Positions 1 through 51,543 of a DNA stretch of 64,000 nucleotides are shown one piece after another; the first letter of the stretch is position 1, and the number at the start of each line of letters is the position of its first letter. The translations under genes and the position numbers were made by a program. The notes below the pieces were generated by a model. It did not search any database and was not told where the DNA came from. It saw only the letters and a list, made by a program, of their open reading frames with translations. This stretch comes from a bacterium. Lineage in GTDB: Bacteria > Actinomycetota > Acidimicrobiia > Spongiisociales > JAHEDJ01. The stretch is from NCBI GenBank assembly GCA_024641325.1, contig JAHEDJ010000002.1, positions 74,365-138,364 on the forward strand, written 5' to 3'.

Positions 1-420
1 ATCGGTATAACTGCCGATTCGCCGTTGGAGGGGAAACTCGAGGATCTGGCTCTCAGCATTGGCGCTTGCCCTTTCAAGCTCGAAGACGGCCGGCGCCCGC
101 TCTATCACGCGGCCGCCGCCTGCGCGGCGAACTACGTGCTGACCGCGCTTGCGCTGGCAGAAGAACTGTTCGAAGCTGCCGGAGTGCCGTTTGGATTGGC
201 CCGGCCGCTGGTTTCCGAGGTAATCGCCAATGCGTTCGATGTGGGGCCCCGTGATGCACTGACGGGCCCTATTGCCAGGGGCGATTTGGGGACGGTGGCG
301 GCGCAGATAGCGGCTGTGGCAGAGGTCGATCCCGACCTGGCAGCCGACTTCAAGGCGTTCGGCCGCGCAACTGCGAGGCTGGCAGGCGCAGACGCTTCGA
401 TGCACGAGATGCTCCGATGA
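1..420 (+). CDS. C-terminal fragment of a Rossmann-like DUF2520 oxidoreductase-type protein, the usual panC-upstream gene in Actinobacteria; its N-terminus lies outside the window.
   Basis: ORF 25..420 runs to the left edge. It has the TGPIARGD-type motif and an Ala-rich C-terminus, and its stop overlaps the panC start (ATGA) as in the mycobacterial panC neighbourhood. Confidence 0.5.
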   Translation: MGITADSPLEGKLEDLALSIGACPFKLEDGRRPLYHAAAACAANYVLTALALAEELFEAAGVPFGLARPLVSEVIANAFDVGPRDALTGPIARGDLGTVAAQIAAVAEVDPDLAADFKAFGRATARLAGADASMHEMLR

Positions 421-1310
421 AGATCGTGCAACGTTTCGCTGAAGTGCGGGCTTCGACCGCCGGCAGGCTGGGGCTCGTTCCGACGATGGGGTTCCTGCAC
501 GAGGGACATCTGGCTCTGGTCGACGCGGCACGTCGCGACTGTGACACGGTGGTGATGAGCCTCTTCGTGAACCCACTCCAGTTCGATGAAACGCGCGACC
601 TCTCTCGTTATCCGCGTGACCTGGATCGGGACGCCGAACTGGCAGAGGGCCGAGGTGTCGACGTTCTCTTTGCTCCCGAGCTCGATGAGATGTACCCGCA
701 GGAACCGCTAACGAGAGTGACCGTTTCCGGGACTACAGACGAAATGGAAGGCGCTCACCGCCCGGGCCATTTCGACGGTGTGGCGACGGTTGTCGCCAAG
801 TTGTTCGTTGGGATTAGAGCCGATCGAGCCTATTTCGGCAGAAAGGATGCGCAGCAGTTGGCCACCGTTACCAGGATGGCAGCGGACCTTTCGATTCCCA
901 TCGAGGTGGTTCCGGTGTCGATCGTACGGGAGCAGGATGGATTGGCGCTGTCGAGTCGCAACGTGTTTCTCTCATTAGACGAGCGCCGCAGAGCTTTGGG
1001 TATCTCAACGGGACTGATGGCAGCAGCCGATGCGGCAGAAGGCGGAGAACGGGATGGGTTGCAGCTCGAATCCATCGTGCGAGCTCGTCTCGATGGGGTT
1101 CTCATCGACTACGTTGCTCTGGCCGGGGCTTTGTCCGCCAGGAGGGTCGACAACCTGGAGGAGGATGCCGTCCTGGCAGTGGCGGCGCGGGTCGGTGAGA
1201 CCCGACTCATCGACAACGTGTTTCTGACCGTTCGCGGCGACACCATCGTCGCCGACCGCGGAACCCGGCTCGACGAACCGAGCATTCTGTACGCCGCACA
1301 CCGCGACTAG
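417..1310 (+). CDS. panC: Pantoate--beta-alanine ligase (pantothenate synthetase).
   Basis: Carries the VPTMGFLHEGHLALV (HIGH-like) and SLFVNPLQF motifs at a length of 297 aa. Confidence 0.9.
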   Translation: MKIVQRFAEVRASTAGRLGLVPTMGFLHEGHLALVDAARRDCDTVVMSLFVNPLQFDETRDLSRYPRDLDRDAELAEGRGVDVLFAPELDEMYPQEPLTRVTVSGTTDEMEGAHRPGHFDGVATVVAKLFVGIRADRAYFGRKDAQQLATVTRMAADLSIPIEVVPVSIVREQDGLALSSRNVFLSLDERRRALGISTGLMAAADAAEGGERDGLQLESIVRARLDGVLIDYVALAGALSARRVDNLEEDAVLAVAARVGETRLIDNVFLTVRGDTIVADRGTRLDEPSILYAAHRD

Positions 1311-1405: not shown

Positions 1406-2977
1406 ATGACCGACGAAAATCCGTCAGACGAATCGCAGGACATCCCAGAAGACGCCGGCCTCGCCGCGCACCCGATCACGGCGCGCCGACTCGAGAAGCT
1501 CTCCGAGATCCGGGATGGAGGCGGTGAACCGTATGCCTACCGCTTTGACCGTACGGCAACGGCCGCCGATCTGCATGCGGAGTACGGCGACCTGCAACCG
1601 GGGGCCGAGACCGGCAGGATTGTCGCGGTCGCAGGCAGAGTGCTCAATGTGCGTAGCTTTGGGAAGCTCATGTTCCCGGTACTCCTTGATCAGACGGGAA
1701 GGATTCAGCTGTTCGTCGCCAGCAACACACTCGGAGCAGATGAGTTCGAGCGATTCGGCGGCGTTGATTCAGGAGATTGGGTGGGTGCCGAGGGCGAGAT
1801 AATCACCACCAAGAAGGGTGAGCTCAGCGTTCGCGTCCAGTCGTGGGTGTTGCTTTCGAAATCGCTCCGACCTTTGCCGGAGAAGTGGCACGGGCTCAAA
1901 GATGTCGAACGACGCTACCGCCAGCGATATCTAGATCTCATTGTGAGCGATGAGGCGCGCCGCATCGCAATGACCCGGTCGCGGATTCTTGCAGAGCTTC
2001 GCAAACAGTTCACCGACCGCGGCTACATCGAGGTGGAGACGCCGGTGCTTCAGTCACAAGCGGGCGGAGCCCTGGCGCGGCCGTTTGAGACCCATCACAA
2101 CGCGCTCGACATCGACATGTATCTGCGTATCGCGACCGAACTCCACCTCAAGCGGTTGGTAGTCGGAGGGATGGAGCGCGTGTTCGAACTGGGCCGGATC
2201 TTCCGCAACGAAGGGGTGGACACGACACACAACCCCGAGTTCACGACACTCGAGGCCTATGAGGCATTCGCCGATTACCGGGACATCATGGAGTTGGTGG
2301 AAGAGGTAGTGGCGGCAGTGGCCGAGGCTGCGACCGGATCGATGCAGATCGAATACGACGGTCGACCGATCGATTTCACGCCTCCCTACCGGCGGGCCAC
2401 CCTGCTCGACCTGCTATCTGAGGCGCTTGGGGAATCGGTGGGGTTCGACCTGTCGCTGACGGAAATGCGTGATCTGGCCCTTTCCAAGGGCATCACGCCT
2501 GATGCTGCCTGGGGCAAGGGCAAGCTGATCACCGAGTTGTACGAACACCTGGTTGAACCGAATCTGTGGGAACCCATCTTCGTGATCGATCATCCGAAAG
2601 AAACGTCGCCCCTTGCAAGAGTCCATCGCCGGGACTCGAACCTGACGGAGAGATTCGAGTTGTTCGCAGGAGGTATGGAGCTGTGCAACGCCTTTTCGGA
2701 ACTCATTGATCCACTCGATCAGCGAGAGCGCTTCGAGCAGCAGGCAAAGGCGAAGGCCGCCGGCGACGAGGAAGCCCACCCGATCGATGAGGACTTCATT
2801 CGCGCGCTCGAATACGGTATGCCTCCGACCGGTGGTCTCGGCATCGGCGTCGATCGTTTGGTCATGCTTTTAACGGGGCAATCGACGATCCGCGAAGTCC
2901 TGTTGTTCCCGCATCTGAAGCCGGAGACCAGCAACCGGCGGCCGCCGCCGGATCAGAGCTCAACGACGATCGGGTGA
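1406..2977 (+). CDS. lysS: Lysyl-tRNA synthetase, class II.
   Basis: Has the class II motifs FRNEGVDTTHNPEFTTLEAYEAF and GGLGIGVDRLVMLL with an N-terminal OB-fold region, and the panC-lysS order is conserved in Actinobacteria. Confidence 0.9.
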   Translation: MTDENPSDESQDIPEDAGLAAHPITARRLEKLSEIRDGGGEPYAYRFDRTATAADLHAEYGDLQPGAETGRIVAVAGRVLNVRSFGKLMFPVLLDQTGRIQLFVASNTLGADEFERFGGVDSGDWVGAEGEIITTKKGELSVRVQSWVLLSKSLRPLPEKWHGLKDVERRYRQRYLDLIVSDEARRIAMTRSRILAELRKQFTDRGYIEVETPVLQSQAGGALARPFETHHNALDIDMYLRIATELHLKRLVVGGMERVFELGRIFRNEGVDTTHNPEFTTLEAYEAFADYRDIMELVEEVVAAVAEAATGSMQIEYDGRPIDFTPPYRRATLLDLLSEALGESVGFDLSLTEMRDLALSKGITPDAAWGKGKLITELYEHLVEPNLWEPIFVIDHPKETSPLARVHRRDSNLTERFELFAGGMELCNAFSELIDPLDQRERFEQQAKAKAAGDEEAHPIDEDFIRALEYGMPPTGGLGIGVDRLVMLLTGQSTIREVLLFPHLKPETSNRRPPPDQSSTTIG

Positions 2978-3534
2978 TCCACGGTGGCTCGGCCCCTCAG
3001 CGACTCGATTTCTTCGAGAAGCGATCCGGCCTGACGGTTCTCGCCATTCTGTACCGCCACCAGCGTGAATACGGCTCTCAGGGTCAGGGATTCCAGATGT
3101 TCGGACTCCAGTCGGAGGATCGTGGCCAGGCGATCGAGAAGTGCCGTGACCCCCTCGACCTTGAACTCCCTCAGCACGGCTACATAAGTCAGGTGATCGA
3201 GATGGCCGATTTTGTCGACGCCTCTCAATGTTGCGCTCATCACGGCTTCGAGGTGCTTGTCCAGCCAGCGGTGGTCGTCATCGGCTGAGGTCGGCGGATC
3301 TGGGAGTCCCTCCACCTCGATGAGAAGAATCCCGAACTGGTCCTTTCGTCGGGAAAGCCAGTTCAAGGCCTCCTGGATTGCATCGAGTAGACCGTTCCGA
3401 TTGAGCGTGCCGGATGCAGGGTCGATCGGAGACAGTACGTCCAGTGCAAGCCTTAGGCGGCGGATCTCTTCATCACGTTCGAAGAGCGCCTTTTCGATGT
3501 CTTCGGGTTCGTCGTTGGTGGGGTCAATATCCAT
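2953..3534 (-). CDS. Degenerate GGDEF-domain protein whose GG(D/E)EF motif is replaced by HLDHLT while the RxxD I-site (RGVD) is retained; a likely c-di-GMP binding effector rather than a cyclase.
   Basis: The GGDEF fold signature is visible (LNRNGLLDAIQEAL; ILLIEVEGL in place of the IDLD metal site; RGVDKIGHLDHLTYVAVL in place of RxxD...GGDEF). The ORF track extends to 3708, but that N-terminal extension is Arg/Ser-rich low complexity, so the internal ATG at 3534 (MDIDPTNDEPED...) is preferred. Confidence 0.55.
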   Translation of the reverse strand: MDIDPTNDEPEDIEKALFERDEEIRRLRLALDVLSPIDPASGTLNRNGLLDAIQEALNWLSRRKDQFGILLIEVEGLPDPPTSADDDHRWLDKHLEAVMSATLRGVDKIGHLDHLTYVAVLREFKVEGVTALLDRLATILRLESEHLESLTLRAVFTLVAVQNGENRQAGSLLEEIESLRGRATVDHPIVVEL

Positions 3535-3990
3535 TGGCAAGTCGAGGATAGTGATCACCGGCCGAATTCGTGCCTTATCGATAGCGCAAGCTTGCCGACT
3601 GGAGAGTCGTGCGGGCTCTGAAACGCAGGTTGATGAGGCCGACGACCGAAATCCGTCCCTCCGGGAGACATCAATGAGGATTGCCGAACAATTTCTGTCC
3701 CGGTTCATGGAGCAGGCGACCCTTCAGGCGAAAAGCCGTACCGTTGGTGAACCGGATTGCGCTCCAGCGCCCGGCCCTGATGCCCTTCCACCTCGGGTCA
3801 ACTCTGCTCACTCGGCTGCGCCCGTCGCTGAGCTCCAGAGGCGCACCGCCGCCTATCAGGCGACCGTTGAGGTTCTGTCGAAGTCACTCCAGCCTTCGCT
3901 GGTCGACTTCCTGAGATAACCGACGGGCTTCGCTCGAGCGCATAGTCCGTTGCGCGGCTCGAGGGCGGTTCCTTCGGTGAGATACCGGCC

Positions 3991-4431
3991 CTAGCAGGCT
4001 GCAGCTCGTCCGAAGGCAAGATGGGCTGCTTCCAATCGTTCCCGCGCAAGCCCGACGATCGAAAGCCTCAAGGAATCCACTGAGCGAGTGATCTCGAGCA
4101 GTTCGTCGAGGTCGGCTCTGAGGGCGATTGCCTGCTCGGGGTCTGACCGCTGGATGATGGCGCGGAGCGAGAAGTCGTATTCGGGTTCACCCCACAGGTC
4201 TGCGATCCCGGCGACGACGACGGCTCGGAGCACTTCGTTAGTACCGAGCTGCCGTTCGAGCTTGGCGATCTGCCGGGCCGCCGAAACAAGTGCGAGGTCG
4301 CGTTCGGAAGCAATCAAGGCCGCCATTTCCCCGAGTCTTGCTTCGAGTTCCACTAGAAGCCGGCGTTCACGATTGAGTATCTCCAGCAGGGAGTCGATTC
4401 CGGGCTGCTGGATGAGATTCAGTTCGTTCAC
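3991..4431 (-). CDS. Coiled-coil protein, FlgN-like or anti-sigma-like, lying divergent from the sigma-28 family gene.
   Basis: Predicted all-helical with a heptad-like Leu/Glu/Arg pattern (LLEILNRERRLLVELEARLGEMAAL). A GAGGAG Shine-Dalgarno sits 9 nt upstream of the GTG at 4431; the track start at 4449 is also a GTG. Confidence 0.5.
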   Translation of the reverse strand: MNELNLIQQPGIDSLLEILNRERRLLVELEARLGEMAALIASERDLALVSAARQIAKLERQLGTNEVLRAVVVAGIADLWGEPEYDFSLRAIIQRSDPEQAIALRADLDELLEITRSVDSLRLSIVGLARERLEAAHLAFGRAAAC

Positions 4432-4653
4432 GCGCGATCTCCTCTTCACGGCTCTCGTCTGATGGTTCCCGTCGGCGGGTTCCCGCGTACTTCAAGCCAT
4501 CATTTCGAAGTCCGGGCAAGGTGCATCATGAGAAGTCAAATGGAGCCTGTGCGAATAGGGCTCAAGAGGACCCTCCCGGGGTGCCGATGACAAGTGAAGC
4601 GCTACCAAGTATTCGCAGTTGTCTCCGGAGACAAGTCGAACAGGGACTGGACA

Positions 4654-5484
4654 ATGGCCGCCTTGGATCGAAACCAGCTGGCAGTCGAGCACATCGATCT
4701 CGTAGGTCACATCGTGGCTGAGGTGTCGGTTCGCTACCCACGTCACGTCGACAGGAAAGAATTGTGGAATGCCGGCGCGCTCGGCCTCGTCGAGGCCTCG
4801 AGGCGCTTCAACATCGAGAGCGGAGTTCCATTCGCTCGATACGCCGCCATCCGGATTCGGGGGGCGATCATCGACTCGACGAGATCTCGCGATTGGGCGA
4901 CCCGGTCCGTACGCAGGAATCTTCGTGAGATCCAGCAAGCGACATCGGATCTCGAAGAACGAACCGGCCGCCGTCCTGATGATGATGACCTCGCCGGCGC
5001 GCTGGGCATCACCGTCGCAGAGCTCTTGGACAGGCAAGCGCAGGCGAGTTACAGCACTCTCCTGCACCTAGATCAAGATGACTCGGAAGAGGCGCCGCTT
5101 CGAGACCAGGTAGCCGAAGAGCGCCCGTCGGTTCTCCCCGAGGAAGCACTCGAGAATCGCGAACTTCTGGGTACCCTCAAGGCCGCGATCGGGTTCTTAG
5201 CGCCGGCTCAAGCCGAAGTGGTCAGCCGTTACTACCTGTACGGCGATCTCCTGCAGGATATTGCCGACGATCTAAAGGTGACTGAAGCCCGGGTCTCGCA
5301 GATCCGGGCTGAGGCGCTGGCATCCATGCGGTCGTATTTCGCAACTCTCTACGAGGGCCTGCCGGATGTCGACGATTCTGCACCGGGCAAACGTGCAAGA
5401 GCGGCCTACCTGTCGGTGCTGTCGGAGAACACCACGTGGCGCTCCCGGCTGGAGCAGGATGAGCTTCTAACCACAGGTCCCTAG
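4654..5484 (+). CDS. FliA/WhiG-family (sigma-28 type) RNA polymerase sigma factor.
   Basis: Region 2 reads LWNAGALGLVEASRRFNIESGVPFARYAAIRIRGAIIDSTRSRDW, region 3 reads SVRRNLREIQQATSDLEERTGRRP, and region 4 reads YYLYGDLLQDIADDLKVTEARVSQIRAEALASMR. The start is taken at the internal ATG 4654 (MAALDRNQ...); the upstream Met at 4594 is less likely. Confidence 0.8.
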   Translation: MAALDRNQLAVEHIDLVGHIVAEVSVRYPRHVDRKELWNAGALGLVEASRRFNIESGVPFARYAAIRIRGAIIDSTRSRDWATRSVRRNLREIQQATSDLEERTGRRPDDDDLAGALGITVAELLDRQAQASYSTLLHLDQDDSEEAPLRDQVAEERPSVLPEEALENRELLGTLKAAIGFLAPAQAEVVSRYYLYGDLLQDIADDLKVTEARVSQIRAEALASMRSYFATLYEGLPDVDDSAPGKRARAAYLSVLSENTTWRSRLEQDELLTTGP

Positions 5485-5543: not shown

Positions 5544-6947
5544 TCAAGGCTCCTGCGTCTTGAACCCGCGACGCTCGAGAGTTCCCCAAGTGTGGTCCCC
5601 ACGCAGAGCCGAGAAGAGTCCGCGAATTCGCCACCAGGTAGCAAGTTGTCGATAGCCCAGGTTCTCGATGAACGCAACCAGTATCAAGCGTCCGAGATCG
5701 CGCGGGCGTGAGTATCGCTGGAACGACAGTTCTTCTAGAGCAACTGCCGCGACCGACAGAGCTACTCCGGCCGCCACCGCGAGGCCGAGGAATGCCAAGA
5801 TGTACGACATTGGAGCGACCCCTGCAATCAGCGCCCACAGAAAGACGACGAAGCCGGATGCCTCGATGAGCGGTCCGATGACCTCGAAAATGCCGTAGTA
5901 GGTGAATCCAATGAGCGCAGGCGGTCCGTAGAGGGGGTTGCCGAACATTTGCCGGTGCCGCCACAGGGTTTGGACCAGGCCGCGTTGCCAGCGGTTTCGC
6001 TGTCTGCCAAGGCTCCCCAAATCCTCCGGTGCTTCGGTCCACGCAACGGGGTCGGGGATGAAGGCGACCCGGTAGTCGATATCGTTCTCCCGGCAATGGC
6101 GGTGGAGTCGGACCACCAGTTCCATGTCCTCCCCGACAGTGTCGGTGGCGAATCCGCCTACGTCGACAACTATGCCTCGTCTAAAGACACCGAAAGCGCC
6201 CGAAATGATCAATGTTGCCCGAAGGACATCCCATCCAACCCGAGCCGCGAGAAACGCCCTGAGATACTCGACGACCTGGAACCGAGCGACCATGTTCTTC
6301 GGCAACAGGACCTGACGGACGATACCTCCGTCGACTACGCAGCCGTTGGCGATGCGCACGATGCCGCCCGCCGCCACGGTGTCGCGGTTCTCCAGGAAAG
6401 GCCGAACGAGGCGCGGGAGGGCTTCAGGTTCGAGCAGCGTGTCGGCGTCCATTGCGCAAAACAGAGGTGTTCTTGCGTAATTGAGACCTGCATTCAAGCT
6501 GTCGGCCTTGCCCCCGTTTTCCTTGCTGACGACCCAGAGGTTTGGATGGCGAGCGGCCCGGTGAACAGTCCTGACGGGCGCGGTGTGCAAATTGGCGCTC
6601 GGTGCACGAGCGGCCGGTTTGAGCTGGAATGCCTCGATCAGGCTGCCGAGGGTTCCGTCCGTAGAACCATCGTCCACGACGACTATTTCGTAGTCGGAGT
6701 ACTGAAGGGTGAGCAGCGAACGAACCGACTCGACGATGCCGGCTTCCTCGTTGAAAGCCGGGACAACGAGGGTGATCGGGACACCTCCGGCTGCGTTCAC
6801 CAGGTCTCCTATGTGTAACGACTTCAGCCTCCCGACGTACTTCTTCAGATCGATGAAGGCCAGAACGCTCGTCGTCATGTAGACGAAGTTCATGGCGAGG
6901 AAATAGACCAGAATCACCAGGCTCACTACGTATACGAGAGTGATCAC
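5544..6947 (-). CDS. Processive family-2 glycosyltransferase of the PgaC/IcaA/NodC/HAS-like membrane synthase type.
   Basis: Has DDGSTDGT, DAD (AMDADT) and QRNRWQRG (QxxRW) motifs, with one N-terminal and several C-terminal transmembrane segments, and overlaps the upstream HEAT gene by 4 bp. Confidence 0.85.
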   Translation of the reverse strand: MITLVYVVSLVILVYFLAMNFVYMTTSVLAFIDLKKYVGRLKSLHIGDLVNAAGGVPITLVVPAFNEEAGIVESVRSLLTLQYSDYEIVVVDDGSTDGTLGSLIEAFQLKPAARAPSANLHTAPVRTVHRAARHPNLWVVSKENGGKADSLNAGLNYARTPLFCAMDADTLLEPEALPRLVRPFLENRDTVAAGGIVRIANGCVVDGGIVRQVLLPKNMVARFQVVEYLRAFLAARVGWDVLRATLIISGAFGVFRRGIVVDVGGFATDTVGEDMELVVRLHRHCRENDIDYRVAFIPDPVAWTEAPEDLGSLGRQRNRWQRGLVQTLWRHRQMFGNPLYGPPALIGFTYYGIFEVIGPLIEASGFVVFLWALIAGVAPMSYILAFLGLAVAAGVALSVAAVALEELSFQRYSRPRDLGRLILVAFIENLGYRQLATWWRIRGLFSALRGDHTWGTLERRGFKTQEP

Positions 6948-8011
6948 GTGACCCCCCCGGCAATCATTTCTTGTGCCAGCGTCGATTGCGGAAGTTCGCT
7001 CTGTGCTATCTCGTGTAGCCGCTCACGGCCACCTGCTTCGAGGAGCGCACGGGCTGCGTTGATTGCGACCCATGGGTCGGCGTCGAACATCCCCAGCTCG
7101 AGCACTTCGATGTCGGAGGCGTCGCCGATGGTGCCGAGGGCACTGAGGGCCAGCGCTCTGAGTGTGTGGTCGCGACCCGACGCGTAGGTGCGGACAATTG
7201 ATACGTGCTCCGGACCCCCCACCGTCCTGAGCAGCCGGAGCAGAGCGGCAGCCAGCTCCCGGTTCGGGCTGCCGGTCAGCACCTTGACCGCTATGTCCCC
7301 GGCCACCGGATCCGTTAGAAGGCCGAGGGCCTCTGCGGCAACCGCCCTATCGATCGGGTTGCCCTCGGTCAGGAGAAAGGATCGGAGCGCGGGTGCCACC
7401 TCGACTCCGAGTGAGGCGAGCATGCTGGCCAGAAAACGACTGTTCCATTCCGAGTAGCGGTGCAGGTTCGAGAGCACTCTGACGATGTATTCCGGGTGAT
7501 GGGACCCGGCGAGAGACCGTGCGGCCACCATCGAGACGAGCGGAGAAGGATCATCGAGTGCCCGGGCGATTCTGGCCCCGTGCTCATCGATGCCCAATGT
7601 GGCGAGCGTCTGCACGGCCAGCGCTCTCCGTGAGGCCGAGCGGGCCTGCAGGTCTCCGAGAATGCCGGGCAGGACTGGTGCGGCAATGTCGGTGATCGTG
7701 AGGTTGTCGTTGCCGACCAGCAATCTGGCGTATCGCACCAGGAAGCGGAGGAAGTGTCGGGAAGACCGGGGAGTGACCGTGTTGAGTAGGTCGGATATTG
7801 GGAGTGACCCGGCCATTACCTCCAGGAGCAAGGGCTCCCAGGTTGCCTCGTAACTCGAGTAGCGACGTGCCCGTATGACGTTCCGGAACCGCATCGCGAA
7901 GGCGGAAGCGGCGAGGTATGCGACTACTCCGACGATAACGAGGGTCGACCACAGGACGACGCCAATGAGTGCCTCCGAGGCCCATACGGACGAGGTGCCG
8001 CCAGACCACAT
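6944..8011 (-). CDS. Membrane-anchored HEAT (PBS-lyase type) repeat protein.
   Basis: An N-terminal transmembrane segment is followed by at least five HEAT-like repeats (…DPSPLVSMVAARSLAG…, …NPIDRAVAAEALGLL…, …DADPWVAINAARALLEAG…). It is translationally coupled to the GT2 gene and sits 8 nt after the receiver gene. Confidence 0.7.
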   Translation of the reverse strand: MWSGGTSSVWASEALIGVVLWSTLVIVGVVAYLAASAFAMRFRNVIRARRYSSYEATWEPLLLEVMAGSLPISDLLNTVTPRSSRHFLRFLVRYARLLVGNDNLTITDIAAPVLPGILGDLQARSASRRALAVQTLATLGIDEHGARIARALDDPSPLVSMVAARSLAGSHHPEYIVRVLSNLHRYSEWNSRFLASMLASLGVEVAPALRSFLLTEGNPIDRAVAAEALGLLTDPVAGDIAVKVLTGSPNRELAAALLRLLRTVGGPEHVSIVRTYASGRDHTLRALALSALGTIGDASDIEVLELGMFDADPWVAINAARALLEAGGRERLHEIAQSELPQSTLAQEMIAGGVT

Positions 8012-8019
8012 ACCGGCGG

Positions 8020-8424
8020 CTACCGGGCCAGCAGTCGTTGTACCCTGAGGGCGAGTTCCGTAGGCGAGAAGGGCTTCAGTATGTAGTCGTCGGCGCCACC
8101 CGAGAGTGCGCGAACAACGTCCTGTTCCGTTCCCATTCCCGTCAACATCACCACTGGAATGGGTGCCAGCCTGGGGTCCTCCTTCAGACGGCCGAGTAGT
8201 TCAAAGCCGTCCATGCGAGGCATCTTCACGTCGAGAATCGCCAGCGAAAAGGGTTCGGAATCTGGAGCTTGGGCAGATTCGAGGGCGCTTTGGCCGTCTT
8301 GGCAGTGGAACACTTCGTAGCCCTCGCGCTCGAGGCGGTGGACGATCAGCCTGGCGGTAAGAGCATCATCCTCGGCGAGGAGGATTCTTGGGCGCTGGTT
8401 GGCCGGATTGGCCTCAGAGTGCAC
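8020..8424 (-). CDS. Single-domain CheY-like response-regulator receiver.
   Basis: Has LLAEDD, the phospho-acceptor [11 protein letters not shown], and VVMLTGMG...DYILKPF at 134 aa, with no output domain. Confidence 0.85.
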
Positions 8425-19426: not shown

Positions 19427-19657
19427 CCAGAGTCCTTCCTTCGTGGGTTATTGTGCCACGCATCGATGGTGCTTTGGGCGATCAGGACCGCTGAAACATG
19501 GAGTCCGGGAGATTTTGTCGGTCTCCTGGTGTTGCTGATCGTCCTTCTTGCGGCTGGTTACTGGCTACGTCGGGCTCGCAACCACAGGGATTGAGCTCCT
19601 CTCGCGATTCGCAAACCGCGCTTCTTTCCTGTCACATGCCGCCGATAAGATCGCCGC

Positions 19658-21021: not shown

Positions 21022-22089
21022 ATGTCTGGCCCCGTCACTCTTCACCAGGTTCTCGAACGCTTGGCACCGGGAACTCCGCTTAGACAAGCCGTCGAGCGCA
21101 CCATCCAGCAGCGAAACGGCGCGCTCGTCATCCTCGGTTTCGATTCGACCGTCGAGGGACTCTGCAGTGGCGGTTTCGAACTCGCCAACTCTGTGTTCAC
21201 CCCTGCCAAGCTCGCCGAACTGGCGAAGATGGACGGGGCAATCGTGATGAACAACGCCGGCGATCAGATACTCCGCGCCAACGTGCACCTCTTGCCGGAT
21301 CCGAAATATGGTACGGATGAGACCGGCGCCCGCCATCGGACTGCCGAACGAACGGCCCAGCACACCGGCAAGCCGGTGCTCAGCGTGAGCGAGGACCGTC
21401 GTACAGCGACCCTGTTCATCGACGGAACGAAGCACGAACTTCTGAGCCCGACTCTGGTGGCCGCCAGTGTCAATCAATCCCTCCAGACTCTCGATCGCTT
21501 CCGGAGACGGCTAGACGACGCAGAAGAGATCCTCACTCGCTCGGAGATTGCGGATCTCGTCACGTTCCGCACGGTTCTCGCGGTGCTGCAGCGATCAGAG
21601 TTGGTCCGAAGGATCGGTCAGGAAATCAAGCAGGACGCGGTTGGCCTTGGCGAAGAGGGAAGTCTGATTTCCCTCCAGATCGCCGATCTGATTCATGGGG
21701 TCGACGAGCTTCGACAGCTCATTCTGGCGGACTATGTTCGCCCTAATCGTCGCAGTCGCGTTCAAGGAGCGCTAAGCGACCTCGAGGCTATCCCGACGGC
21801 AGATCTCACCAGCGCCGAAGCCGTGGCTCAGGCGCTCGGCCTTGATGAGCCGGATAACGAGGCGAAGGCCCGCGGGGTGCGGCTCTTGTCACAGGTTCCC
21901 AGGCTGCCCGACACCGTTCGGACGGCCATAGTCCGGCATTTCCGCAATCTCCAAGGGCTGCTCGCTGCTTCGGCGGCCGATCTCGAGCGAGTGGAAGGTG
22001 TGGGGGCCGCCCGCGCTGAACAGATTCGACAGTTCTTCGATCGGATGCAGGACCGAACACAGATGTGGCAGTCAACCTTCCCCGACTGA
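21022..22089 (+). CDS. disA: DNA integrity scanning protein DisA (diadenylate cyclase).
   Basis: Has DAC-domain motifs (DGAIVM, RHRTAERTAQHTG) and a C-terminal HhH, and follows radA as in Bacillus and Mycobacterium. Confidence 0.9.
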   Translation: MSGPVTLHQVLERLAPGTPLRQAVERTIQQRNGALVILGFDSTVEGLCSGGFELANSVFTPAKLAELAKMDGAIVMNNAGDQILRANVHLLPDPKYGTDETGARHRTAERTAQHTGKPVLSVSEDRRTATLFIDGTKHELLSPTLVAASVNQSLQTLDRFRRRLDDAEEILTRSEIADLVTFRTVLAVLQRSELVRRIGQEIKQDAVGLGEEGSLISLQIADLIHGVDELRQLILADYVRPNRRSRVQGALSDLEAIPTADLTSAEAVAQALGLDEPDNEAKARGVRLLSQVPRLPDTVRTAIVRHFRNLQGLLAASAADLERVEGVGAARAEQIRQFFDRMQDRTQMWQSTFPD

Positions 22090-48972: not shown

Positions 48973-51543
48973 TCAGCCTGTGCGAAGTTGCCGGACAGTG
49001 TTCGAGTACTCCAGTGGTTCGATCATCCGTCTCGGCGCCATCTCGATGGCCTCGTCGATCGACACGGCGGGAGACAGGTAGAACCCCTGGACGTGTCTGC
49101 ATCCGAGTTCTCTCAGCCTCGTGAGCTGTTCACGGGTCTCGACGCCTTCGACGATCGAGCCCAAGCCCAGAGAGTTACCGATGGTCAAGACGGTGCGAAC
49201 CAGTGAGGTCTCTCCCTTTCCGAGTTTCTCTACGAATGAACGGTCGATCTTCACGATATCCAGCGGCAGCCGATCGAGATAACTCAAGGAGGAGTAACCC
49301 GTTCCGAAGTCATCGATGGCGAGATGGATTCCCAGCGACTTCAACTGCTCCAACTTCTGCACCGCGGTGTGCATGACTACGTTCTCGGTGATTTCAAGAG
49401 TGAGGTGATCGGCCGCGAGGCCGCTATCGGCCAGCGCGTGGCGAACTTCGTCGACGATGTCACGTTCGCTGAGTTGCTTTGGAGAGATGTTGACGGCTAC
49501 ACCGGTCGCAGAGCCCGGGTTTGCGAGCTGCCATTTCCTCGCGTCTGTGCATGCCTTTTCGAGGGCCCACCGGCCGAGGCGAACGATGAGCCCCGATTCC
49601 TCGGCATAGGGTATGAACTCGTTCGGTTGGATGGTTCCCAATGCCGGATGGTTCCATCGCATGAGCGCTTCGAAACGCGTGATGGCTCCAGTGGTGGTAT
49701 CGACGATCGGTTGGTAATGCAGCTCCAGTTGGTTCAACTGGAGGGCAGATTGCAGTGACGTCCGGAGCTCGAGAGTCTTAGTCACCTCGTCATGCATTGC
49801 GTCTTCATACTGCCGATAGGTTCCCTTGCCCTGGTGCTTGGCCGCGTACATCGCCGCGTCTGCGTTGCTGAGTAGCTCTCCCGGACCGTCGTCGGGGGTC
49901 GAGAGGGCAATGCCGATGCTGGCCCGGCTCAGGATCTGGTGGCCATCGATGAGGAATGGAAGTTCCAAGGAGTCGATCATGCGGGAGGCAAGTCCGACAG
50001 GAGCGGTGGTGTCTCGTGTTGAAGGGATCAGGATGGCGAACTCGTCACCTCCGATACGGGCAATTGTGTCGTCGCTGCGACACTCGCCTTGCAGTCGCTC
50101 CGCTACGCCGATGAGTAGCTGGTCACCTGCGGCGTGCCCGAGACCGTCGTTGACGCTCTTGAAATCGTCAAGGTCGAGGAACATGACGGCGGCCGAGGCG
50201 CCTTCCTCGAGGTTGCTCAAGGCGTCATTCACACGGGCGGTGAAATTCGCTCGATTGGCGAGGCCGGTCAAGGAGTCATGGAGTGCCTGGTACTTCAGTT
50301 CTTCTTTCAAGATGGTCAAGCTGGCGAGTGAGTCGACGAGTTTGCCGTTTTCCAGCGAGACGGCGACCTGTCGGGCAAAGGTTTCGAGGAGTTTGATGTC
50401 GCGGGGTTTGTAAGAGCTCACATCGTCGAGCTTGTTCGCCACGAGAAGGATGCCTCCGACCGCCTCATCGACGAAAAGCGGTGTGGCGATGCCTTCCCGG
50501 ATGGACGGGCAGTCGCCCATCCGCGTGAACGCCTCATCGTCCTTGTCGAACAACCTGCTGGCACGGGTCGATGCGATCTCATGCCAGACAGGACGTTCGT
50601 GATCGAGCGGAATCAACTTCATCTGGAGTTCCCCGTCGGCCGGCCCGACTCGGGTCCGGTATGCGGCATTGTGGGAGTCGTCGATGAACAGAGTTATCTC
50701 CGCGAACTCCGCAGCAAACATCGCGCGTGCCCGGTCGGCTGCTACCAGCATCGCTTGTTCGATTTCGGGCGTCTGGTGCAGGACTCTCGTCGCGTCGTAG
50801 AGAGACTCGAGGCGTGTGCGTTGTTCGCGCTGGCTCATATAGGCCCGGTAGGAAAGGAAGAGAATGGCAGGCGGTATCATCGCCAGGAAGGCCATCCCTG
50901 GTGCCAATTGGGTCATGGTGACGGCGATCAACGCCAGACTCGAACTCATCAGTGTGGCAAGTGTGCTCAGCCCGATGACTTCGCTGAGCCCGGGCCTGCG
51001 GAAAGACCCGGAAACCAGGAAGATGGCCAGGTTGACGAGGAACATTGCCGTGGTGAGCGCGGCCAGAGCTGCAATGAGCGCTCCTGCCCATCCCGCAATT
51101 CCCAGCGGCTCCCCGAGCCGCGCGATGCTCCGGAACACCACGATGGCCATCCCGAACACAAGTGTGAATTGAGAGACGTTGAAGAGGAGTTTCAAAAGGG
51201 GTTGGCGGCGGTGGATGCTCAGCACGAGCGTCGAGCCGATCAGGACCGAAAGCATCATGTGAGCCGGAGCGAAGAAGAAGAGGCCGAAGATCAGCGGGAT
51301 TTCGCTCATCGAGAAAGAATGAGCGTCGCGTTTCCCGCGGAAATGGACGACCGTGATCTCGCTCAAATATACGGCCGGGATCAAGACCCACCATGGCACG
51401 CTGGGCGCACCCGGCATGACCGCCCAGTCGGAAACGATCATGGCGATCAGCAGGGCGGCAGCTGCGATGGCGGCCGTGAGGAAGAGAACACGTGTCGATC
51501 CGGACCTACGGGTCGATTTGGTGGGGGCTGGTCGTGTCTTCAT
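48973..51543 (-). CDS. Membrane sensor with GAF, GGDEF and EAL domains (diguanylate cyclase/phosphodiesterase).
   Basis: Has an N-terminal polytopic domain, an intact GGDEF (RIGGDEFAIL) and EAL motifs (EALMRW, DDFGTGYSSLSYL). Confidence 0.9.
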   Translation of the reverse strand: MKTRPAPTKSTRRSGSTRVLFLTAAIAAAALLIAMIVSDWAVMPGAPSVPWWVLIPAVYLSEITVVHFRGKRDAHSFSMSEIPLIFGLFFFAPAHMMLSVLIGSTLVLSIHRRQPLLKLLFNVSQFTLVFGMAIVVFRSIARLGEPLGIAGWAGALIAALAALTTAMFLVNLAIFLVSGSFRRPGLSEVIGLSTLATLMSSSLALIAVTMTQLAPGMAFLAMIPPAILFLSYRAYMSQREQRTRLESLYDATRVLHQTPEIEQAMLVAADRARAMFAAEFAEITLFIDDSHNAAYRTRVGPADGELQMKLIPLDHERPVWHEIASTRASRLFDKDDEAFTRMGDCPSIREGIATPLFVDEAVGGILLVANKLDDVSSYKPRDIKLLETFARQVAVSLENGKLVDSLASLTILKEELKYQALHDSLTGLANRANFTARVNDALSNLEEGASAAVMFLDLDDFKSVNDGLGHAAGDQLLIGVAERLQGECRSDDTIARIGGDEFAILIPSTRDTTAPVGLASRMIDSLELPFLIDGHQILSRASIGIALSTPDDGPGELLSNADAAMYAAKHQGKGTYRQYEDAMHDEVTKTLELRTSLQSALQLNQLELHYQPIVDTTTGAITRFEALMRWNHPALGTIQPNEFIPYAEESGLIVRLGRWALEKACTDARKWQLANPGSATGVAVNISPKQLSERDIVDEVRHALADSGLAADHLTLEITENVVMHTAVQKLEQLKSLGIHLAIDDFGTGYSSLSYLDRLPLDIVKIDRSFVEKLGKGETSLVRTVLTIGNSLGLGSIVEGVETREQLTRLRELGCRHVQGFYLSPAVSIDEAIEMAPRRMIEPLEYSNTVRQLRTG

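Follow-up and report, generated by a model that had tools for sequence, protein, structure and literature searches.

A sigma-28 module probably orphaned by flagellar loss between lysS and clpC in an acidimicrobial genome

The window analysed here is a 64,000-nt stretch of an Acidimicrobiia genome (contig JAHEDJ010000002.1 of assembly GCA_024641325.1, positions 74,365 to 138,364; G+C content ~61%). Between lysS and clpC it encodes a sigma-28 factor (fliA), a small helical protein divergent from it and a protein with a degenerate GGDEF domain. Comparison with annotated gene clusters of relatives indicates that this locus is the remnant of an Acidimicrobiia flagellar cluster. It is a sigma-28 module orphaned by flagellar loss and bears on the regulation of FlgM-less actinobacterial sigma-28 factors. 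The lineage of the window has lost the structural genes from this site and kept fliA, the gene of the helical protein (flgN2), the degenerate GGDEF gene and a shrinking fragment of flgL. The reading as a whole, a decayed flagellar cluster which has left a regulatory module with an active sigma factor and a putative input from cyclic di-GMP (c-di-GMP), is given a probability of roughly 70%. The module is not a switch of the RsiG type, in which c-di-GMP arms a coiled-coil anti-sigma factor.

A first-pass annotation, made from the letters of the stretch, had listed three open reading frames (ORFs) at 4654-5484(+), 3991-4431(-) and 2953-3534(-), and all three are present. The locus is laid out as follows, from the left end of the window to the sigma gene:

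417-1310, plus strand: panC, at the left end of the window
1406-2977, plus strand: lysS, after panC
2953-3534, minus strand: degenerate GGDEF protein, 193 aa, predicted to consist of a coiled-coil stalk at the N-terminus and a GGDEF fold behind it
3573-3602, plus strand: promoter of the sigma-28 class-III type, CCTTAT-N15-GCCGACTGG, 72 nt upstream of the FlgL relic
3674-3919, plus strand: FlgL C-terminal relic ORF, 81 aa, recognized by BLASTP to the FlgL C-terminus
3991-4431, minus strand: FlgN2, 146 aa, GTG start, an FlgN-family paralogue divergent from fliA
4468-4497, minus strand: promoter of the sigma-28 class-III type, GCTTGA-N15-GCCGACGGG, 36 nt upstream of flgN2
4551-4560: decayed inverted-repeat half-site GCGAATAGGG, abutting the CTCAAG box upstream of the sigma gene
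4561-4590, plus strand: conserved promoter-like element CTCAAG ... GCCGATGA, upstream of the sigma gene
4654-5484, plus strand: sigma-28 factor of the FliA/WhiG1 type, 276 aa, recognized by family models, PDB matches and orthologues in flagellar clusters

The loci of relatives carry L numbers (L001, L004 and so on), and their sequences are contigs of metagenome-assembled genomes (MAGs) throughout. Nearly all homologues of the locus proteins come from Acidimicrobiia and from unclassified actinobacterial MAGs. Three relatives whose sigma factors are 64-65% identical to that of the window (L009, L011 and L015) carry a flagellar cluster at the same site, after panC-lysS. This cluster begins with flbD(-), a GGDEF-like gene of 186-189 aa (-), flgN1-flgK-flgL-fliW-csrA(+), flgN2(-) of 149-186 aa and the sigma gene (+), and continues with HDOD genes ... 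flhA, flhB, fliR, fliQ, fliP, fliO, fliN, fliL, motB and motA. The gene divergent from the sigma gene is here a second member of the FlgN family, with a weak match to Pfam FlgN. One or two HDOD genes are found directly 3' of fliA (L009 10931-12664, L011 11462-12265, L015 10919-11719), and they are lost in the clade of the window. The flbD gene, which separates lysS from the GGDEF-like gene in flagellated relatives, is cleanly gone from the window. There, lysS and the GGDEF-like gene are convergent and their tails overlap by 25 nt (2953-2977).

In total, 80 species-level genome loci that carry this sigma factor were surveyed. Between lysS and clpC they show graded stages of decay, starting from full clusters. 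Loci were called reduced when no flagellar gene was found within 10 kb of the sigma gene on the MAG contig. The order GGDEF-like / flgN1 csrA / flgN2 / sigma is kept in L036, GGDEF-like / csrA / flgN / sigma in L043, GGDEF-like / csrA / sigma in L030 and L034, and GGDEF-like / sigma in six loci (L014, L019, L025, L035, L040, L079). The clade of the window (the window, L005, L013, L001 = L017, and L004) has the order GGDEF-like / FlgL relic / flgN2 / sigma, followed by genes for a family-2 glycosyltransferase (GT2), a HEAT-repeat protein and a REC protein. The gene triad that was noted at first pass is conserved in related genomes. In a neighbour-joining tree of the sigma factors, the reduced loci occupy about five separate positions and are interleaved with flagellated lineages. 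Wherever the upstream sequence of a reduced locus is long enough, the GGDEF-like gene is present, and the sigma gene persists without flgN2 in L014, L019, L030, L034, L035 and L040. Flagellar clusters have been described in 41-91% of the species of basal classes including Acidimicrobiia, and are ancestral and frequently lost (PMC10746217). The flagellar origin of the locus is established at the level of gene comparison because of the synteny with annotated clusters at the same lysS site, the 80-locus survey and the orthology of the parts. This flagellar-relic island is inserted amid otherwise conserved housekeeping synteny.

The most direct trace of the lost cluster is the relic ORF at 3674-3919, which has a Shine-Dalgarno-like GGGAG. 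Its likeness to FlgL is limited to the last ~30-33 residues (...YQATVEVLSKSLQPSLVDFLR; ...AELQRRTAAYQATVEVLSKSLQPSLVDFLR), which match the FlgL C-terminus of L009 and L011 with BLASTP E-values of 1e-6 and 7e-7. No Pfam model matches the relic, Flagellin_N and Flagellin_C included. The counterpart in L001 and L004 is larger (265-272 aa). About 230 of its residues align to FlgL (E-values between 6e-13 and 2e-16), but the flagellin-N terminus is missing; in L013 the ORF is reduced to 32 aa. The C-terminal QPSLxDFL(R/K)-stop is kept in all five members of the clade (window, L005, L013, L001, L004). Judged by these alignments, the relic is an flgL gene in progressive truncation and not a functional FlgL. 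The relic is encoded on the strand opposite to both the helical gene and the GGDEF-like gene and sits between them, so that these two genes do not form one operon and are not co-transcribed. The initial statement that the window contains no flagellar genes is right for structural genes only; none, whether of a flagellum or of a pilus, is present in the window.

It could be argued that the organism is still flagellated, that its structural genes have moved, and that the locus is the regulatory end of a split regulon. The arrangement of flagellar genes does vary in relatives (in L008, fliC is divergent from the sigma gene), and the window covers 64 kb of a 166-kb contig. However, the FlgL at the ancestral position is shortened and devoid of the flagellin-N domain in 5/5 clade members, the locus no longer contains flgN1, flgK, fliW, csrA, flbD or HDOD genes, and the absence of structural genes extends over the whole window. 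A still flagellated organism is therefore considered quite unlikely.

The sigma factor itself contains the Sigma70 regions 2, 3 and 4 (PF04542, PF04539 and PF04545, all above their cut-offs). Its best NCBIfam match is TIGR02479 FliA_WhiG (E 1.4e-49), at 168.9 bits below the trusted cut-off of 189.6, and its top PDB matches are WhiG of S. venezuelae (4.6e-33) and FliA of E. coli (1.6e-31). The initial assignment to the sigma-28 family is well founded in these matches. The protein is 59-65% identical to the sigma factors within the flagellar clusters L008, L009, L011 and L015. A search gave 916 matches at E <= 1e-20, the best 120 of which are all 60-100% identical, and the sigma factor is conserved far better than the neighbouring genes.

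Actinobacterial sigma-28 factors have been divided into two clades: WhiG1, which is linked to flagella and not bound by RsiG, and WhiG2, which is under the control of RsiG and c-di-GMP (PMC12871210). The first-pass annotation had drawn an analogy to the second, in which an RsiG-like coiled-coil anti-sigma factor would hold a WhiG-type sigma while a third partner, the degenerate GGDEF protein, senses c-di-GMP. The top PDB match to WhiG, the divergent helical gene next to the sigma gene, the intact inhibitory site (I-site) of the GGDEF-like protein and the conservation of the triad in the clade would all suit this proposal. The sigma sequence speaks against it. In an alignment to 6pfv, the c-di-GMP-contacting positions K57, G61 and R62 of WhiG are replaced by G, A and E, and the RsiG-contacting positions T235, L236, Y239, E240 and L242 by S, R, L, Y and D. 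None of the eight contact residues (residue list from PMC12871210) is conserved, which places the protein outside WhiG2 and leaves the analogy without a basis in the sigma factor. Because of this lack of WhiG2 contact residues and the flagellar context of the orthologues, the window sigma is assigned, from sequence comparison, to the WhiG1/FliA type and not to the RsiG-binding type.

Past region 4.2, the window sigma extends by ~45 residues (5350-5484 encodes this C-terminus), with a conserved PGKRARAAY...W(R)xR motif common to its close relatives. A C-terminal tail of similar length (~60 aa) is present in nearly all surveyed actinobacterial FliA-type sigma factors in which it could be measured. 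Whether the tail goes together with FlgN2 or with the GGDEF-like gene was considered, and the comparison is uninformative because nearly all measurable loci have the tail.

The helical protein is a divergent member of the FlgN family. Its own match to Pfam FlgN (PF05130) is weak (E 1.2e-4, 23 bits versus a cut-off of 30.5), and all eight members of its close family match the model. An exhaustive search with a profile of these eight members retrieved 332 relatives. Among the remote homologues sampled, 53 of 61 match Pfam FlgN, the best with 2.7e-22. In the AlphaFold2 (AF2) model (pLDDT, the predicted local distance difference test, 85.6), the best superposition is on FlgN of P. aeruginosa (2fup; probability 1.0, TM 0.62/0.72, root-mean-square deviation 2.7 Å over 118 columns). 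The Foldseek E-values of this model are not significant against any helical bundle. Profile scores for FlgN1 and FlgN2 (51.7 vs 46.7) do not allow the protein to be assigned by sequence alone. A neighbour-joining tree of 69 FlgN-family ORFs from the surveyed loci separates a flgK-adjacent clade (FlgN1) from a fliA-adjacent clade (FlgN2). The helical protein and its clade fall among the FlgN2 sequences, a split which agrees with gene position, and it is because tree and position were combined that the protein is assigned as FlgN2. A divergent flgN2 next to fliA is present across Acidimicrobiia and also in loci of Nitriliruptoria/Egibacter. In the window, flgN2 is convergent with the FlgL C-terminal relic.

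No trace of RsiG was detected. The motif E(x)3S(x)2R(x)3Q(x)3D has zero matches in the six-frame translation of the 64 kb, in agreement with the first reading by eye of the coiled-coil protein, and FlgN2 contains no site with even three of the five fixed residues. The RsiG chains in the PDB (6pfj, 6pfv, 7lq2-4) show no sequence match to the helical protein at E <= 10, whether the query is one sequence or a profile, and no RsiG chain is found among the top 50 Foldseek matches of the model. RsiG proteins with a single motif have been reported only in Rubrobacteria and Thermoleophilia (PMC8325347). On the strength of the motif scan, the PDB sequence searches, the fold search and this taxonomic range, RsiG was rejected as the identity of the helical protein. 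Of the two characters first proposed for it, FlgN-like or anti-sigma-like, the former holds; an anti-sigma of the RsiG kind is contradicted by motif, sequence and fold. Membership of the FlgN family, together with a place inside the flagellar cluster of relatives, is also an outcome which the first-pass annotation had itself listed as counting against its anti-sigma reading. Several lineages moreover keep the sigma factor without the helical protein. An RsiG-like arrangement is thus largely refuted and retains hardly any probability.

The 193-aa protein does not match any Pfam model, PF00990 included. Weak PDB alignments to GGDEF domains place its RGVD on the I-site RxxD (RDTD in 5llw) and its DHLTY on GGEEF, the RxxD preceding the former GG(D/E)EF by five residues. 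The AF2 model (pLDDT 76) is matched by Foldseek with probability 1.0, and E-values down to 3e-8, to the GGDEF domains of PleD, WspR, SiaD, DgcB and FimX. These matches include proteins which combine a coiled coil with a GGDEF domain (SiaD, DgcB and a GCN4-WspR fusion). Across 33 homologues, flagellated species included, the R and D of RxxD are invariant and the former GG(D/E)EF reads D(D/E/H)xT(F/Y)-like throughout. Alignments, predicted fold and homologues agree with the first-pass description of a dead catalytic motif next to an intact I-site. As GG(D/E)EF is destroyed in the window and in all 33 homologues, the protein is, to judge from these motifs, not a cyclase. The invariant RxxD and the uniformly degenerate GG(D/E)EF further point to a family which is ancestrally non-catalytic and has preserved its I-site. 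Orthologues are encoded inside the flagellar clusters L009 (E 3e-25) and L011 (8e-22).

PelD, PopA, YdaK and PssE are c-di-GMP receptors of this kind, with a degenerate GGDEF domain and an I-site. CbrR of Campylobacter is another, and regulates flagella (PMC8779298). By analogy, the degenerate GGDEF protein can be expected, with some reserve, to bind c-di-GMP, and would then probably be a dimeric receptor which uses its I-site. It could pass the c-di-GMP level to the sigma-28 pathway by binding sigma or a partner of sigma. An action in this pathway is suggested because the GGDEF-like protein is the sole partner retained with sigma in all reduced lineages; such a role is a serious but tentative possibility, and a direct anti-sigma role appears unlikely. 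A c-di-GMP input via the degenerate GGDEF partner is therefore plausible and gains comparative support from this joint retention.

Promoters provide a second line of evidence. A position weight matrix (PWM) was trained on 25 promoters of the flgN1 operon and fliC of flagellated relatives, and its p-values were obtained against 5000 random 116-nt windows, with a threshold of p <= 0.01. It replaced a loose regular expression for sigma-28 sites, which had given many matches inside genes. The trained consensus has a fixed spacing, cCTTAA-N15-GCCGAC(A/T)GG, and when written as CTTA-N16-GCCGAC it fits the WhiG1 consensus reported in actinobacteria, CTCA-N16-17-GCCGAACT (PMC12871210). Outside the training set, sites at p <= 0.01 were found for flbD (12/14), flgN2 (15/27) and HDOD genes (7/12). 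In flagellated relatives (L009, L015, L023, L024, L027 and others), the class-III promoter ends 6-10 nt before the start codon of flgN1, which implies that their flgN1-flgK-flgL mRNAs are leaderless or nearly so.

The best score in the 64 kb, both strands considered, is 22.5 at 3573-3602(+), equal to the best training sites. The site corresponds to what was once the promoter of flgN1-flgK-flgL. L005, L013 and L004 have kept it, and L001 has it with a G-to-T change in the -10 box. The second score (14.2, p = 0.005) belongs to the site at 4468-4497(-) before flgN2, conserved in L005, L013, L001 and L004, and the third (14.1) is located inside a coding region. Both promoters of the locus are conserved in the clade while the surrounding intergenic DNA is not. 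On both strands of the window, the matrix gave no site before the GGDEF-like gene, and none before the GAF-GGDEF-EAL gene or the REC-HEAT-GT2 operon. A minus-strand ATCGATAA (~3577), considered as a -10 box of the GGDEF-like gene, was rejected, since the matrix shows it to be the -35 part (CCTTATCGAT) of the plus-strand promoter at 3573-3602. Sigma-70 promoters and intrinsic terminators were also sought between 2900 and 5600, and nothing exceeded the shuffle expectation.

The motif GCCGATGA which had been noted upstream of the sigma gene, and taken as fitting autoregulation, is present at 4583-4590, with 64 nt between it and the ATG. Taken as an octamer by itself, it is no more than chance would give: the window contains 58 octamers within one mismatch of GCCGATAA, and GCCGATGA itself occurs 12 times. 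The spacer of the element is also 2 nt longer than the class-III spacing (PWM -0.1, p = 0.08). In its favour, orthologous intergenic regions have kept the element, and the footprint CTCAAG...GCCGATGA reaches distant relatives with otherwise diverged intergenic DNA. Autoregulation of sigma is accordingly possible. In many Acidimicrobiia (L014, L018, L028, L029, L053, L081), an inverted repeat GACTATT-N5-6-AATAGTC abuts the CTCAAG box and is probably the operator of a dimeric fliA regulator. The sole exact GCCGATAA of the window belongs to a site at 19620-19649, 9 nt before the start of radA. The -35 region of this site is poor (PWM 10.0), and the match has probably arisen by chance.

Selection on the retained genes was estimated from the ratio of non-synonymous to synonymous differences per site (pN/pS, Nei-Gojobori) in the closest pairs, window-L005 and L001-L004, pS being saturated for distant pairs. 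The values are 0.16 and 0.10 for sigma, 0.17 and 0.21 for the GGDEF-like gene and 0.50 and 0.24 for FlgN2, respectively. In comparison, lysS gives 0.07-0.10, and GT2 gives 0.21 and 0.14. These ratios clearly indicate that the sigma and GGDEF-like genes are maintained by purifying selection, FlgN2 less strongly. Because of the strong constraint and the conserved target promoters, the sigma factor is probably still active; it would be freed from flagellar assembly, with a regulon mostly outside the window. FlgN2 probably still binds the C-terminal helix of FlgL, as FlgN chaperones do, and would be accessory to the circuit and not essential, because several lineages have dropped it.

Several observations and limits weigh against the reading as a whole. 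The class-III promoter before the GGDEF-like gene is absent in the window and present in only 4/39 homologues, and the matrix detects no sigma-28 target outside the locus in the 64 kb. The last 30 codons of the relic have a pN/pS of ~1.0 for window-L005, which looks neutral although few sites are compared; the same codons give 0.11 for L001-L004, and the FlgL tail is perhaps maintained in the latter branch and drifting in that of the window. Flagellar genes could lie elsewhere in the reduced genomes. The neighbour-joining trees of sigma and FlgN carry no support values. Finally, the deletion of intervening genes by itself joins the sigma and GGDEF-like genes, so that their retention counts and their adjacency does not.

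Some of these observations would follow from plain decay, without any module: sigma would be kept for unrelated targets, the other parts being independent leftovers or having unrelated jobs. Within the clade, the length of the FlgL fragment falls from 272 aa through 81 to 32 aa, and the fragment is neutral-looking in the subclade of the window, FlgN2 is dispensable elsewhere, and the GGDEF-like gene has no sigma-28 promoter. Plain decay does not account for the joint retention of the sigma and GGDEF-like genes in every sufficiently flanked reduced locus, at ~five positions of the tree and under purifying selection, nor for class-III promoters conserved amid unconserved intergenic DNA. It is a doubtful explanation. 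If the parts were unconnected after all, the locus would be a case of ordinary gene-cluster decay.

A different partnership would have FlgN2 bind sigma directly, as an anti-sigma factor or sigma chaperone in place of FlgM, with the C-terminal peptide of FlgL titrating FlgN2. Such a partner switch would descend from the FlgN-FlgK/L-FlgM feedback loop. FlgN is a chaperone specific for FlgK and FlgL and, in Salmonella, regulates the translation of FlgM (PMC4054197). FlgM is absent from Acidimicrobiia (PMC10746217) and missing from almost all actinobacterial clusters, and the anti-sigma factor of the WhiG1 clade is unknown (PMC12871210). In line with this, Pfam gave no FlgM match for the window relic or for the 75-121-aa ORFs of clusters L008, L009, L011 and L015. 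FlgN2 is moreover a distinct and old paralogue beside fliA in Acidimicrobiia and Nitriliruptoria/Egibacter, it usually has a class-III promoter, and a C-terminal fragment of FlgL is kept alongside it in the clade of the window. On the other side, six of the loci which keep sigma have lost FlgN2 (listed above), and its constraint is weaker, with pN/pS up to 0.5. Proteins of the FlgN family are not known to bind sigma factors. A direct FlgN2-sigma partnership is consequently regarded as unlikely.

The preferred reading, a flagellar remnant with an active sigma factor and a putative c-di-GMP input, combines features of several known systems. As in the FliA/FlgM/FlgN checkpoint of Salmonella and Bacillus, a sigma-28 factor is adjacent to a helical protein of the FlgN family, class-III promoters are of the TTAA/TAAA-N15-GCCGA type, FlgL is a client of FlgN, and the same genes stand within a complete flagellar cluster in relatives. 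Unlike in that checkpoint, there is no FlgM here, and of two FlgN paralogues the fliA-adjacent one is kept. The structural genes are absent from the locus, FlgL is represented by its C-terminal helix only, and a degenerate GGDEF gene is part of the cluster.

The locus also resembles the WhiG1 clade (Denis et al. 2026 preprint, PMC12871210) in its association with flagella in relatives, the lack of c-di-GMP and RsiG contact residues and the fitting promoter consensus. It differs from the clade as described in that sigma persists beside two conserved partner genes, without a flanking flagellar cluster. The description of the clade is based on 673 reference genomes, and makes no mention of Acidimicrobiia, FlgN or GGDEF partners.

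With the WhiG-RsiG-(c-di-GMP)2 switch of Streptomyces and Rubrobacter (PMC7005675, PMC8325347), the locus shares a sigma-28 factor kept after flagellar loss, a helical protein nearby and a possible c-di-GMP input. The likeness ends there: motif, sequence and fold of RsiG are missing, the contact residues of sigma differ, and any c-di-GMP site would be the I-site of a GGDEF domain, not a coiled-coil motif. Degenerate-GGDEF receptors such as CbrR (PMC8779298) have in common with the 193-aa protein the GGDEF fold, the destroyed GG(D/E)EF, the RxxD five residues upstream and, in the case of CbrR, the association with flagellar genes. Unlike the known receptors, it consists of a stand-alone stalk and GGDEF domain without REC, GAF or membrane domain, is too divergent for PF00990 and is genomically tied to a sigma-28 gene; it is a putative receptor.

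A more general model may be formulated for FlgM-less Actinomycetota, in which a WhiG1-type sigma-28 is controlled post-translationally by an I-site-only GGDEF dimer, as a c-di-GMP-dependent anti-sigma or co-factor, and by FlgN2, which is set by the C-terminal helix of FlgL; the lineage of the window would re-use this module for a non-flagellar regulon. In this full form the model is speculative and rather improbable. If it is true, c-di-GMP control of a sigma-28 factor has been reached by a second and independent route, beside RsiG-WhiG of Streptomyces. The locus bears on a gap left by two recent studies, on a class without FlgM (PMC10746217) and on a WhiG1 clade whose anti-sigma partner is unknown (PMC12871210). 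The comparison nominates two previously undescribed candidate regulators beside fliA across Acidimicrobiia, namely FlgN2 and the Pfam-invisible, I-site-only GGDEF protein. With flagella lost repeatedly, the loci amount to a natural deletion series, in which sigma is always accompanied by the GGDEF-like gene and sometimes by FlgN2, csrA or a FlgL tail. The locus is a snapshot of how a flagellar sigma factor may be freed for other uses, as WhiG in Streptomyces.

To the right of the sigma gene, the locus continues as follows:

5544-6947, minus strand: GT2, PgaC-like
6944-8011, minus strand: HEAT-repeat gene, membrane-anchored
8020-8424, minus strand: stand-alone REC gene, 134 aa, recognized by Pfam/NCBIfam
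beyond the REC gene: a polyprenyl synthase gene and then clpC, the right edge of the locus

The REC-HEAT-GT2 operon (5544-8424, minus strand; its stop and start codons overlap) is found only in the clade of the window, in place of the HDOD and flagellar export genes of relatives. The GT2 is partially PgaC/IcaA-like, far below the cut-off (130.8 vs 422.3 bits). Searches of the operon with Pfam and NCBIfam gave no PilZ, GIL, GGDEF or other c-di-GMP module. The first-pass proposal of a c-di-GMP-type exopolysaccharide synthase operon thus finds no supporting feature, and nothing in the sequence ties the operon to c-di-GMP or to sigma. In L014 (7854-9179), and also in L030, L034 and L043, the gene convergent with sigma encodes a protein of 441 aa that contains two REC stretches and, weakly, a GGDEF_2-like region; the equivalent in the window is the bare 134-aa REC.

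The active GGDEF-EAL enzyme proposed at 48973-51543(-) was recovered as a GAF-GGDEF-EAL protein with intact motifs: RxxD (RSDD), GGDEF, EAL, DDFGTG and EGVE. The protein could plausibly supply or consume the c-di-GMP of the organism. The rest of the window is housekeeping, with nucleoside ABC transport, radA-disA-carD-ispD-cysS-rlmB, Liv transport and others. The gene for DisA, a c-di-AMP synthase, is located at 21022-22089, in the classic actinobacterial radA-disA-carD-ispD-cysS-rlmB block.

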